64,000 bases of DNA from Thermoanaerobaculia bacterium (lineage in GTDB: Bacteria > Acidobacteriota > Thermoanaerobaculia > Multivoradales > UBA5704). Within the stretch, counting starts at the first letter, position 1, and each line of letters begins with the position of its first letter. A model generated the notes under the pieces. It was given only the letters and a program-made list of their open reading frames with translations. It had not been told where the DNA came from and searched no databases. The stretch lies in contig JBBSBW010000006.1 of the NCBI GenBank assembly GCA_038250865.1, forward strand, positions 26,424 through 90,423. The letters are read 5' to 3'. This document shows, in pieces, positions 23,041-58,136 of the stretch. The position numbers and the translations under genes are program-made.

Positions 23041-23077
23041 CGAGGAAAAGAGGGTGGGGCCCGCGAAGCCCCACCCT
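23041..23077 (-). terminator. Rho-independent terminator for the 120-aa hypothetical gene
   Basis: Perfect 10-bp stem AGGGTGGGGC/GCCCCACCCT with a 7-nt loop, followed on the minus strand by CTTTTCC. Confidence 0.45.
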
Positions 23078-23187
23078 CGAACTTTCTACAGCTACCTCTT
23101 TTGATCTCGACTTGGATCGATGGGTGTGTCCTGCCTGCAGGCCGCGGGAGCTCCCTTTGGACGGTGCGCACGGCACACCCTGCGAGA

Positions 23188-23550
23188 TCAGTTTTCCGCC
23201 GTGGGCTTCGCCTCCTTCTTCTTACGGCCGCGCTTGGCCCGGTGCTCGGAGCGGATGTTGAAGCTTTCGAGAACCGGGTTGGCCCAACCGTATTGAGCGC
23301 GGGCGACCGCCGCGAGCTTCCGGAAGCCTTCGCTGGCCTCCTTGTTCTGCCGTCGGCGAAGGACCAACGCATCCGTCAGCTGGCCGCGGAGCATCTGACA
23401 GGTTTCCTGGGTGGTGCGGAGCGCGTCGACCCGGCGGCGGATTTCGGCGAGGTGAGCCTCGCCGCCCGGGATGCCGGGAATCGCCTCCTGGATGTTCTGG
23501 ATCGTCACGTCGCACTGGTTGATCTTGGCCCCGAACGTCGTGTCTTTCAT
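23188..23550 (-). CDS. Hypothetical protein (120 aa) with a strongly basic C-terminal tail
   Basis: AAGGAGG RBS 5 nt before ATG (MKDTTFGAKINQ...). Predicted helical, ending RAKRGRKKKEAKPTAEN. No family recognised. Confidence 0.5.
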   Translation of the reverse strand: MKDTTFGAKINQCDVTIQNIQEAIPGIPGGEAHLAEIRRRVDALRTTQETCQMLRGQLTDALVLRRRQNKEASEGFRKLAAVARAQYGWANPVLESFNIRSEHRAKRGRKKKEAKPTAEN

Positions 23551-23724
23551 ACTGCCTCCTTGTGAGAAAACGAACCGCGAAATGCGGCCCGGTGGTGCCG
23601 ATTGGACCCCGACAAACATCACGCTACAGACCCTAACGGACACACCCCTGAGAAAACGATAGGTCGGCGAAGATTCTTTTTCGCCCGTGGCGAAGAGGCT
23701 CAGAGAAGGGACGTGAAGCTTCGC

Positions 23725-24040
23725 GGAATTCGATTTTCCGGGAGAGAAATTCGATTTCGCGGACGAGAAAATCGATTTTCCGGACCGGGTGAACGATTTC
23801 GCCGGTGAGAAAATCGATTTTCCAGCCGGGAAAACTGATTTCGCGAGCCAGAAGAACGCTTTTGCGGGTGGGAAATTCGATTTCGCGGGTGAGAAAATCG
23901 ATTTCGCGAGCCGGATGAACGATTTCGCCGACCAGGAATTCGAATTTCTCGGCGGGAAAAACGAATTCGCCGACGAGAAAATTGAATTTCCGGGCCGGAT
24001 GAACGATTTCGCGGGTCGAAAAATCGATTTCGCCGACCGA
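23725..24040. repeat. Non-coding tandem array of 15 units of about 21 bp, each carrying the palindrome AAATCGATTT
   Basis: Units such as GAGAAAATCGATTTCGCGGAC repeat head-to-tail with 20-22 bp spacing. The reading frame is not conserved across units and no minus-strand ORF covers it. The plus-strand ORF 23789-24427 is a repeat artefact running antisense into marR. Confidence 0.85.
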
Positions 24041-24070
24041 ATGGACGGGGCGTCCGAAGCTCGGCGGCGG

Positions 24071-24484
24071 CTACGAGTCCCGCCCCAGTTCGGCCAAAAG
24101 CTCGGCCAGCTCCGGTCCGATGCGCCGCAACTCGGCGCGGTGCGCGGCGGCGAGGCTTGCCAGTGCGCTTCGCCCTTCGGTGGTGAGACGAACGCGGACT
24201 TGGCGGCGATCGTTGTCGGAGCGCACGCGTTCGACCAAATCCTTGGCGGCCAAGCGATCGACCAGACCTACGGCGCTGTGAGGGCGCACCGCGAGTTCGA
24301 TCGCGATCTCGCCGATCGTCATCGGCTCGTCCTGTACCCCCCTGAGCGCGAGGAGAGCCTGATGCTGCTGCGGCGTCAGGCCCGCGAGGCGCGCGGCCTC
24401 TTCGCTGAACCGGAGAAAACGCCGTAGAGAGGCGCGGAATCGCGCCAACATGCGGAACTGTCCGTCGCTCACCGGTTCGGGCAC
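24071..24484 (-). CDS. MarR family transcriptional regulator
   Basis: Winged-HTH MarR signature (LTPQQHQALLAL...MTIGEIAIELAVRPHSAVGLVDRLAAKDLVERVRSDNDRRQVRVRLTTEG). Confidence 0.85.
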   Translation of the reverse strand: MPEPVSDGQFRMLARFRASLRRFLRFSEEAARLAGLTPQQHQALLALRGVQDEPMTIGEIAIELAVRPHSAVGLVDRLAAKDLVERVRSDNDRRQVRVRLTTEGRSALASLAAAHRAELRRIGPELAELLAELGRDS

Positions 24485-24577
24485 GGCGACATTCTACTTC
24501 TCGCTTCTATCGTTCTACGATATATATTCCCTGCGCCGCGATTTTTCGTCCGCACCCTTTGGAGGTCACTTGAAGCG

Positions 24578-41654: not shown

Positions 41655-41998
41655 GGGGGCGTACCGGTTTCGACGGGGAACAAAGCGGTGCGGGGGTTGC
41701 GTGTCGAGGTCGACTCGTAAAATCGATTTTTTAACTGCGAACGACAACTTCGCTCTCGCGGCCTAAACGGCTGTGACGTCAATAGGGGGGCTCTGACCCG
41801 CTGCACCCCTAAAGACGCCGACAATGCGGGTCAATGGGTCCGGAGGCCTCGCGACGGACCCAGATACTAGCGAGGATAACTGCCGCGCGCGGCGCCTTCA
41901 CTCGAAGCGCGGCGGTGAAAAAGAAGTGAGGGCTACGCACGTAGATGCCACCGCGACGCGTTTTCCGGACGTGGGTTCGACTCCCACCGCCTCCACCA
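41655..41998 (+). ncRNA. ssrA: tmRNA (SsrA), tag peptide ANDNFALAA
   Basis: 5' GGGGGCGUACCGGUUUCGACGGGG tRNA-like acceptor/D analogue, resume-codon ORF gcg aac gac aac ttc gct ctc gcg gcc taa (41737-41766), 3' T-arm GGGUUCGACUCCCACC and ...CUCCACCA. Confidence 0.9.
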
Positions 41999-57150: not shown

Positions 57151-57318
57151 CCAAGCCTTGTCCACTTCGGAGAACAAAAGAGCCTCCACAACCGGCTGAC
57201 GAGCGGGGGATGATAGATGAAGTCCCGCGCCAGGTAAACCTTGCGCGTGGACGGTCCGGTTCCAGACGAGAGCAGAAGCGGTCTCGCCGAGAACGGCGGT
57301 GAGCCGACCCGGGCCAGC

Positions 57319-57531
57319 GGTGGTCCCGATCAGAACAGTAGTGGTTCCGACCCGAACACTGGTGATCTGGACCAAAACCGGGGTGGTCTCGACCAAACCA
57401 GAGGCGATCCCGACTGGAACAGGGGTGAGCTGGACCTAAACAGTGGTGGTCCCGACCGGAACAGGGGTGAGCTGGACCAGGCCCGTGGTGGTCCCGGCCA
57501 GATCAGCGGCGGGCTGGACCCGACCGCTTTG
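57319..57531. repeat. About 10 tandem units of a 21-bp repeat (consensus GGTGGTCCCGACCGGAACAGG), each with a short interrupted palindrome GGTC-nn-GACC
   Basis: Direct reading of head-to-tail units. Unit length is exactly 21, so the frame is preserved through the XRE gene's C-terminus and through the antisense ORF 57241-57726. Confidence 0.8.
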
Positions 57532-58136
57532 CCACTTGGAGGCCCAACTCGGCGAGAGCGAGTGCTTCGTCCGGATCGCTCAGCGCCAACTCTCTCGCTT
57601 TCTTCGGCCAGCCGTTCGACCAACGCAGGGCTCCAAAACGGTGGGGAGTACTCGGCCAGCATCAGGCGCTGGTCTCTGGGGAGGTCGGAGAGTCGGCGCC
57701 ATAGCTCTTCGGCGTCGGTCCGTTGATCCTCGGCCGAGCGGGCGCGGGGCTGTAAGGCCATGGCGACCCGGAGGAGCGCACCTTCAACGATCTTCCGGAC
57801 GCGGTCGCCGGTCACCGAGGAACAGGCGGAGTCCAACGGGCTGATTCCGTTGGCCGCCGGCCGCCGGATCGATTCGGCCGCTTCGACCACCGCCTTTACG
57901 GTCGTCCCTAACGCGGCGGCCATTCGGTCGAGGGTGCCGGGTCGAGGGATCTTGTCGCCCGTTTCGTAGGCCGAGATCTGCGTCCGGTGCATCTTCACGG
58001 CTCGGCCAAACTCCTCCTGCGTCATTCCCTGGGACGCCCGGAGCATCAACACCAACGTCGCCTCGGTGACGGCCTCGCCCTGGAGCGTTAAAACCGTCGA
58101 ATCGGGCTGTATCTTGCCTTTCGGGTAGCGTGACAT
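57330..58136 (-). CDS. XRE-family HTH transcriptional regulator with a C-terminal tail of 7-residue tandem repeats
   Basis: Cro/C1-type HTH (MTQEEFGRAVKMHRTQISAYETGDKIPRPGTLDRMAAALG). The last 65 aa or so, SSPLFRS GPPLFRS SSPLFQS GSPLVWS RPPRFWS RSPVFGS, are encoded by 21-bp DNA tandem repeats. Confidence 0.55.
   Translation of the reverse strand: MSRYPKGKIQPDSTVLTLQGEAVTEATLVLMLRASQGMTQEEFGRAVKMHRTQISAYETGDKIPRPGTLDRMAAALGTTVKAVVEAAESIRRPAANGISPLDSACSSVTGDRVRKIVEGALLRVAMALQPRARSAEDQRTDAEELWRRLSDLPRDQRLMLAEYSPPFWSPALVERLAEESERVGAERSGRSTRSRRVGPPSGKAVGSSPPLIWPGPPRAWSSSPLFRSGPPLFRSSSPLFQSGSPLVWSRPPRFWSRSPVFGSEPLLF

Follow-up and report, generated by a model that had tools for sequence, protein, structure and literature searches.

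A 21-bp repeat array and a small basic-tailed protein gene as a candidate self-contained cassette in a Thermoanaerobaculia bacterium

Described repeat-array systems and the present locus

ParR with its parC site (plasmid R1), omega (pSM19035) and ParG are small centromere-binding, autoregulatory proteins with upstream repeat arrays. The locus considered here lies in a 64,000-nucleotide (nt) stretch of DNA from a Thermoanaerobaculia bacterium of the Acidobacteriota (GenBank assembly GCA_038250865.1, contig JBBSBW010000006.1, positions 26,424 to 90,423), which will be referred to as the window. On its minus strand a tandem array of 15 units of 21 base pairs (bp), at 23725–24039, lies between a MarR gene and a gene for a 120-residue (120-aa) basic protein. 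Comparison of more than 20 loci encoding relatives of the 120-aa protein (given L numbers below) indicates that the array is part of a cassette built around that gene, and the protein is a candidate for its binding partner. As in the ParR-parC, omega and ParG systems, contiguous in-phase direct repeats stand just upstream of the gene for a small (~70–120 aa) basic protein. The proposed logic is also similar, with cooperative binding, here predicted, that would double as autoregulation, and with orthogonal paralogues. Unlike these systems, the locus has no partner nucleoside triphosphatase (NTPase) gene, is chromosomal and multi-copy, and occurs in Acidobacteriota. Its protein is predicted to form a long helical hairpin and not a ribbon–helix–helix (RHH), and its 20–21-bp units with dyad cores contrast with their direct heptads or iterons of 7–11 bp.

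The Rep-iteron systems share with the locus a unit of ~17–22 bp, contiguity of the units, a spacing of about two helical turns and a protein gene next door. However, no Rep fold, plasmid context, AT-rich unwinding element or DnaA boxes were seen, and there are 13–15 units as opposed to 3–7. Contiguous 20–21-bp direct repeats beside a small basic protein gene, together with motifs that are orthogonal between paralogous modules as in incompatibility groups, are what would be expected of replication iterons, or of a partition centromere nucleating a Rep-like or ParR-like complex. This reading is nevertheless very improbable, as the context is chromosomal (the window carries transfer-messenger RNA (tmRNA), signal recognition particle (SRP) RNA and two tRNA-Ser genes), no Rep, ParA, ParM or TubZ gene is present in any locus fetched, and the 120-aa protein has no homologue in viral, plasmid or phage collections and no winged-helix or RHH signature in its monomer model or in Pfam.

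Type III toxin–antitoxin loci (ToxIN, CptIN, TenpIN) are similar in having a promoter, tandem repeats, a hairpin and a protein gene on one strand, in variable and often defence-adjacent neighbourhoods (Vsr/Dcm, PIN, methylases). In contrast to their toxins, the 120-aa protein is all-helical, is not ToxN- or AbiQ-like and has no PADLOC or Pfam match. The units are of 20–21 nt in 11–15 copies, compared with 34–45 nt in 2–6 copies, the hairpin is conserved but has its T-run in the window's clade only, and the loci L153, L151, L023 and L024 have no array. A more distant analogy can be drawn with H-NS and Lsr2, which resemble the 120-aa protein in being small, with an N-terminal helical oligomerisation-like part and a basic, RGR-containing C-terminal tail. 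Like the targets of these proteins, the array is AT-rich, more so than any other part of the locus (50% GC compared with 65% for the window), and carries phased A/T tracts, but its cores are sequence-specific dyads and not generic AT-rich DNA. Kinship with H-NS/Lsr2, considered on the basis of the RGR tail, was rejected as no sequence or fold similarity to the H-NS, MvaT, Lsr2 or Rok families was found, and the likeness is one of analogy only.

Mycobacterial interspersed repetitive units (MIRUs) provide a precedent for coupling through a -4-nt overlap (PMC12548453). As in that case, the repeats lie between co-oriented genes and, in the relatives L006, L009, L011, L015, L016, L020 and L024, hold an internal open reading frame (ORF) that gives no functional peptide and reaches the next gene with a -4-nt overlap. 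Unlike MIRUs, the array is neither dispersed nor mobile within the window, the window and its closest relatives have a broken ORF and yet conserved cores, and the 20-bp arrays of the wider family cannot keep frame. By analogy, the closest systems would be ParR-parC/omega/ParG and the Rep-iterons in logic, type III toxin–antitoxin loci in layout and MIRUs in the leader ORF. Each of these systems has at least one defining feature that the module lacks.

The array and the gene to which it belongs

The presence of an array between the MarR gene and the 120-aa gene, as given in the original prediction, is borne out both by Tandem Repeats Finder (TRF) and by the layout of the register. TRF rows at periods 21, 42, 63 and 126 span 23730–24047, one (23731–24047) scoring 308 at period 126, and a further row at 23730–24030 scoring 243 at period 42 with 0% indels. 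All 15 units fall in an exact 21-bp register, followed by a degenerate distal remnant to 24047; unit length does not vary between 20 and 22 bp as had been supposed. In gene orientation the unit is approximately cCGCGAAATCGATTTTCtc, with one CGAAWTCG-like core each. This core is short and directional, and positions G8, T11 and T12 of the register are invariant. A 10-bp perfect palindrome had been attributed to every unit; exact AAATCGATTT is present in only four of the 15, and the shared core is shorter. The 17-mer GCGAAATCGATTTTCTC, allowing up to 3 mismatches across the 64-kb window, gives 8 matches where 0.35 are expected, and all 8 fall within the array. Within the window the core motif is restricted to the array, and its orientation is that of the gene's strand. 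The sole further copy of AAATCGATTT in the window does lie within the tmRNA gene (at 41720 in 41655–41998), and a CRISPR is indeed excluded, the units being contiguous with no unique spacers between them. The ‘degenerate copies’ reported at 23565–23588 and ~23651 are separate conserved elements, namely a hairpin preceding the ribosome-binding site (RBS) and a piece of a promoter-like element. Rfam, at gathering and at permissive thresholds, returned no relevant match, and a literature search on 21-bp intergenic arrays found no papers.

The MarR gene (24071–24484, minus strand; Pfam MarR_2, 7e-14) is a neighbour only and lies outside the module. The array begins ~25–30 bp past the marR stop codon, that is, at the 3′ end of marR and not at its promoter. 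marR is divergent from a ClC channel gene, and the intergenic region between the two (24485–24577) is the expected site of an operator. An inverted-repeat search of this region at the tool's thresholds returned nothing; by eye, a palindrome, TATCGT-TCT-ACGATA, can be read at 24508–24522, with a similar TATCG-N5-CGATA in L014, and it makes a likelier MarR operator than the array does. The order lepA, ClC, MarR, array, gene recurs in L001 and L014 only. The same array type is found downstream of mraZ, with no MarR, in L004/L005 (protein 89% identical), and in L011 the array adjoins a lactonase-like gene, again with no MarR. MarR had been the binder first envisaged. The units do hold dyad-like cores and do adjoin marR in the window, L001 and L014, but with the array 3′ of marR, the expected operator site elsewhere and no marR near the same array type in L004/L005 or in the other clades, a set of MarR operators is scarcely credible. 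Adjacency to a regulator such as MarR is no evidence of a regulatory link.

It is the 120-aa gene that accompanies the array. In L011, L015, L018 and L021 (~67% identity) there are 11–12 copies of a different 21-bp unit, CTCCCGAATTCCATTTCGGGA, and L029 (56%) has units of GAAWTCGGTGAGCTGG. In L006, L016, L009, L020 and L013 (~60%) the arrays are decayed and show residual lag-21 periodicity. The upstream neighbours of these cassettes vary and include mraZ, NmrA, PIN and Vsr. An array or decayed array occupies ~-480 to -100 of each homologue for which enough upstream sequence was available, in unrelated neighbourhoods; the array-less members named above nonetheless exist. Homology among the cassettes is bounded at about -42 to +505 from the ATG, and the flanks are unrelated. 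Because the array travels with the gene while the neighbours differ, and because homology ends at the limits of the cassette, the comparison places the array in the cassette of the 120-aa gene and not with MarR. The 120-aa basic protein likewise appears the better candidate binder of the two.

The three distant relatives that could be looked up each have an upstream array of their own. In L155 (protein P0034, 38% identity) at least 13 units of 21 bp with the motif GGAR..TTCC extend from -331 to -58, the contig ending at -352. L158 (P0037, 28%) has 13.1 units of 20 bp (90% match, no indels) with the motif GGAAGT-C-ACTTCC (GGAAGTCACTTCC) from -437 to -175, and L157 (P0039, 28%) has ~11 units of 20 bp with TCTCTG..CAGAGA from -260 to -40. 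What the modules have in common is a period of 20–21 bp and a dyad-like core whose general form is GAA-Nx-TTC, and the sequence of the core changes with the protein subfamily. An origin in a codon frame is ruled out because a 20-bp period is not a multiple of three; the period instead points to ~two helical turns. One metagenome-assembled genome (MAG; GCA_044226625.1) contains both L013, with its CGAATTCG-type array, and L157, with its TCTCTG..CAGAGA-type array, in unrelated neighbourhoods. A single host factor would not fit two differing motifs in one MAG. A second MAG (GCA_040005235.1) holds two paralogues of the window's subfamily, L001 and L151, also in unrelated neighbourhoods. At the level of sequence, this pattern is the one expected for cognate pairs of protein and binding site.

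The 120-aa protein has homologues in 31 clusters, all unannotated, the named ones being from Thermoanaerobaculia/Acidobacteriota. Its gene shows a strong third-position substitution bias in pairwise comparisons with relatives. The AlphaFold2 model of the monomer (predicted local distance difference test score 77.5) is a helical hairpin formed from helices 6–26 and 30–87, with no strand, and the basic C-terminus, ESFNIRSEHRAKRGRKKK, is invariant. Searches of Pfam, NCBIfam, PDB, PADLOC and PHROGs gave no match; there was no RHH or helix–turn–helix (HTH) Pfam match, although a strand that forms only in a dimer may be missed by a monomer model. An exhaustive profile search returned 14 representative clusters, including distant small relatives of the same architecture, and the alignment with the distant relatives is gap-free across the first 100 residues. 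Two giant proteins, P0032 (6436 aa; E-value 1.7e-35) and P0033 (3763 aa; 4.5e-24), contain 42 and 25 tandem stretches, respectively, that match residues 2–59 of the family profile. The N-terminal helical module therefore also exists as a highly iterated domain.

Exact 21-bp arrays are not peculiar to this family. In a contig scan for three copies of GAARTCG at 21-bp spacing, whose listed matches do not include this organism and which says nothing on dispersal in its genome, indel-free exact 21-bp arrays were common across bacterial phyla (at least 120 among the matches listed, L031–L150). L083, for instance, has 36.9 copies and L038 (Myxococcota) 27 units, and the units of L048, L082 and L118 resemble CGAAATCG. 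Many of these arrays of other phyla may be non-coding and of a similar kind. The 120-aa gene stands beside none of the at least 120 unrelated 21-bp arrays, from many phyla, among the matches listed. A second tandem array is also present in the window, at 57315–57520, with an exact 21-bp period, no indels and an unrelated GC-rich unit of approximately GGTGGTCCCGACCGGAACAGG. Its neighbours are an HTH_3 (XRE-type) gene on one side and, on the other, a tadA-like deaminase gene, itself upstream of the two tRNA-Ser genes. As with the main array, a regulator gene lies on its 5′ side and the next gene of that strand on its 3′ side. The listed ORF of the HTH_3 gene (57330..58136, minus strand) would read these repeats as a C-terminal tail.

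Constraint and coding potential of the array

The window shares an orthologous, collinear array with L001 and L014, and the three differ in whole units, through indels of 21 and 42 bp. The arrays have 15 units in the window, 14 in L001 and 13 in L014. Their overall divergence of 16% is near that of the third positions of the flanking genes (8–27%). Within the core, AA.TC...TT, there are 6 substitutions in 162, compared with 91 in 405 (~22%) at the remaining positions of the unit. The L011 clade provides an independent case, with 0 in 204 for CGAATT against ~0.29 at linker positions and 5–21% at the third positions of the genes. One CGAAWTCG-like 8-mer per unit is the feature common to every clade. 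Spaced half-sites of the form CGAA-N6-TTCG were also considered as a universal motif and rejected, being confined to one clade. From these substitution patterns we conclude that the array is constrained as nucleic acid. The core is under this constraint even in a lineage (the window, L001 and L014) that cannot translate the array.

No stop interrupts the array in any minus-strand frame or in one plus-strand frame (open from 23717), and a plus-strand ORF of 212 aa is listed at 23789..24427. The array had been called non-coding on the grounds that no frame is kept and no ORF covers it on the minus strand. The conclusion stands, resting on flat codon positions, the lack of a GC3 signal (GC content at third codon positions) and indels of 1–2 nt, but the argument does not, as four of the six frames are open and gene callers call ORFs there in relatives. 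In four related pairs, the substitutions in the upstream region at the three codon positions number 29/37/38, 46/51/49, 19/20/18 and 58/59/52, while the corresponding values for the 120-aa gene are 12/5/33, 8/9/27, 5/3/24 and 20/13/48. All six frames are excluded together because the upstream substitutions are flat across codon positions. In the frame of the upstream ORF, GC3 is 0.58–0.67 in seven long leaders, and 0.78 and 0.65 in the short leaders of L024 and L151; real genes have 0.78–0.88, and the window's array does not exceed 0.61 in any frame. Close relatives differ by 1–2-nt indels in the upstream region, the frame of the repeat relative to the 120-aa gene differs among the window, L001 and L004, and in L014 and L029 every sense frame of the array is interrupted by a stop. 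No ATG, GTG or TTG occurs in the minus-strand frames of the window's array. The plus-strand ORF ends within the array in L001, but in the window it continues for 357 nt into marR, antisense to that gene.

In view of these data it is hardly believable that either strand encodes a genuine repeat protein. The open frames, the protein-like appearance of the heptads (GEKIDFA / REIDFLT) and the ORFs called on the array by annotation pipelines would suit one; the flat substitutions, the lack of a GC3 signature in any frame, the different frames used by close relatives, the 20-bp periods of other relatives and the lack of a Pfam match do not. Exact 21-bp arrays keep frames open and so give rise to spurious ORF calls, in this case of 76, 89, 164, 184 and 188 aa.

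The leader ORF is a separate matter. In the seven relatives with the MIRU-like feature it lies on the same strand as the gene, has a conserved ATGAAC start (MNDAT...), renders the repeats as xxEFxFx and terminates at the TGA within the ATGA of the 120-aa gene, giving the -4-nt overlap. JGI and Logan gene calls give it lengths of 188 and 184 aa. This ORF is not intact in the window, L013, L014, L018 or L029, and in the window it lacks a start, is in the wrong frame and meets two stops past the array. The start follows P1, a promoter-like element that precedes the leader in most relatives (see below), and all P1 copies found (13 loci) keep ATGAAC (ATGATC in L004/L005), compared with only two of the eight copies of the homologous element P2. 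The frame read from this start has 0 stops in 9 of 12 loci, where 1.6–2.3 stops would be expected for full-length leaders, and leader lengths differ mostly by multiples of 3. The open-frame test carries little weight because frames stay open automatically in a periodic unit that has no stops. In L021/L022 (leader to -519 from the gene) no stop separates the leader ORF from the 120-aa gene, with which it is in frame, and a fusion of ~290 aa is predicted; in L004/L005 the conserved start leads into another frame of the repeats (AKSIFSP), closed by a stop 12 nt short of the gene.

By analogy with MIRU repeats, the leader may be translated through in some relatives. The array could on this basis be the relic of such a leader, in which a leaderless ORF with its ATG right after P1 delivers ribosomes to the 120-aa gene in relatives, the window array being a decaying variable-number tandem repeat without present function. 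The retention of the start in all P1 copies and its loss in six of the eight P2 copies, the lack of stops in the start frame of 9 of 12 loci, the leader lengths and the ORFs called at 188 and 184 aa, dead in the window, are consistent with such a history. We regard it as improbable, however, as the cores are strongly constrained in the window, L001 and L014, the 20-bp arrays of L157 and L158 cannot keep frame, and the comparison indicates no amino-acid constraint anywhere, the openness test being weak.

Cassette anatomy, proposed mechanism and significance

The proposed cassette would be self-contained, with a promoter, a long leader or upstream region, a hairpin, a Shine–Dalgarno sequence, the 120-aa gene, a 3′ region and a terminator. 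All the elements of the window's cassette are on the minus strand. Between the array and the gene is the promoter-like element P2 (AAAAAGAATCTTCGCCGACCTATCGTTTTCTC..GTGTCCGTTAGGGTCTGTAGCGTGATG, 23617–23682), with a -10-like TAGGGT at 23635..23630. P2 is conserved in the window, L001, L014 (two copies), L011, L015, L018 and L021, and is homologous to P1. The promoter-like layout consists of a -35-like element, 17–18 nt, TAG[G/C]GT, ~7 nt and GTGATGAAC. In the minimal cassette, L153, P1 (TCGACG-17 nt-TAGCGT) is the sole conserved sequence from the terminator of the upstream gene to the hairpin. The sequences of P1 and P2 suggest that they function as promoters; scans with the sigma-70 consensus gave no match anywhere. 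Just 5′ of the RBS is a conserved hairpin (CGGGCCGCATTTCGCGGTTCG, 23571–23591) that scores as a terminator-like match. Its sequence is kept in the cassettes of the window's subfamily that were compared, and the T-run that follows it is found only in the window's clade. The Shine–Dalgarno sequence, AAGGAGG, read from the sequence at 23555–23561, is kept in relatives and leads into the 120-aa gene (23188–23550). A conserved 3′ region (23045–23187) ends in a strong intrinsic terminator at 23078..23050, formed from a hairpin of 13 pairs followed by TTTTCC. The ~140 nt past the 120-aa stop codon (~+366 to +505) are 70–85% conserved in all paralogous cassettes, and this region could be a 3′ untranslated region (3′ UTR) element or a small RNA.

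Several architectures are seen in the family: minimal (L153), short-leader (L151, L023, L024), long decayed leaders, clean arrays and the window type. In the window type the array is upstream of P2, and the 3′ end of marR replaces P1. No terminator-like site is present between marR (24071) and the array, and transcription may read through from marR into the array. The cassettes of L009, L013, L005, L151/L152 and L153 adjoin mobile- or defence-type genes. These include PIN/RHH toxin–antitoxin pairs, Vsr with a C5 DNA methylase, an N6/N4 methylase, DUF4062 with HATPase_c_4 and an IS1595-type zinc ribbon, which hints that the cassette sits in variable regions of the genome.

The reading preferred here is that the array is a phased multi-site platform, in cis, for the cassette's own protein. 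The original idea of a phased platform with a period of ~two helical turns survives, with a different partner. Each 21-bp unit would present one dyad-like CGAAWTCG core, successive cores being ~two helical turns apart, and the binder would be the small helical protein with its invariant basic tail. Cooperative loading on 13–15 in-phase sites would give an extended nucleoprotein complex that could feed back on the adjacent promoter or the 5′ hairpin, or buffer free protein, and gain or loss of whole units would tune the system. Autoregulation would probably be the outcome. We consider this scheme, including the binding and the autoregulation deduced from the comparisons above, to have about an even chance of being correct.

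Several observations weigh on the other side. The protein is a generic helical hairpin without a recognisable DNA- or RNA-binding fold. L153, L151, L023 and L024 have intact genes and no array, so that the protein evidently needs none, and because of these array-less members it must have a role beyond the array. In the window's clade the distance from the last core to the -10 of P2 ranges from 81 to 170 bp with no helical phasing, which disfavours a rigid promoter-proximal geometry. Gene conversion among units could partly inflate the apparent lack of substitution in the core. Finally, in most relatives the array is downstream of P1 and in transcribed sequence, a position that would suit an RNA target equally well or better.

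A DNA target is suggested by the two-turn period that persists across unrelated motifs, by the palindromic cores and by the position of the window array upstream of P2, while the sense orientation of the array in the transcribed sequence of most relatives and the long dyads of decayed leaders would favour RNA. At the RNA level, a sense transcript, from P1 in relatives or from marR read-through in the window, would fold into many short hairpins in a row or into a single long, imperfect one. It would bind the 120-aa protein, or control mRNA stability, translation or termination at the pre-RBS hairpin, with a logic like that of a type III toxin–antitoxin locus or a CsrB-like sponge. The array is downstream of P1 and on the gene's strand in L004, L006, L009, L011, L013, L015 and L029, and the window has no terminator between marR and the array. 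The leaders fold better than shuffled sequences (z -1.6 to -7.7), but do so to the same extent on either strand. The decayed leaders amount to a long imperfect palindrome with 68% Watson–Crick pairs, compared with 23–32% when the register is slid, but the covariation term of RNAalifold is unfavourable (5 sequences, decayed leaders). Similarly, the arrays of the window, L004 and L011 show more G·U than A·C on the sense strand, an asymmetry that is gone or reversed in L029, L155, L157 and L158 after correction for composition. Moreover, the T-run of the hairpin is not conserved beyond the window's clade, an obligatory antitoxin is ruled out by the array-less members, no Rfam family matches and the protein has no PADLOC match, ToxN-like or other. 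An RNA-level element is on balance unlikely.

If the platform reading is correct, the family might represent an undescribed class of self-contained chromosomal modules, in which a small, basic-tailed helical protein would polymerise on an array of its own, with 11–15 dyad sites set 20–21 bp apart, with orthogonal specificities between modules. We put this forward tentatively, as a possible but doubtful extension. The arrays of such a class would expand, homogenise, decay and vanish over short distances, and it would so far comprise only Acidobacteriota (Thermoanaerobaculia) where the organism is named. Its role could lie in nucleoid organisation, in an NTPase-less centromere-like function or in a defence- or addiction-type function. 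A new class is possible if binding and orthogonality hold; otherwise the cassette would be a cognate small protein and repeat array of known logic. If true, the finding would provide a new cognate protein and repeat-array pair from a phylum with almost no molecular genetics, and with it several natural orthogonal specificities (CGAAWTCG, GGAAGTCACTTCC, GGAR..TTCC and TCTCTG..CAGAGA). It would also show the birth, homogenisation and loss of arrays, as one family has minimal, short-leader, decayed and clean-array versions.

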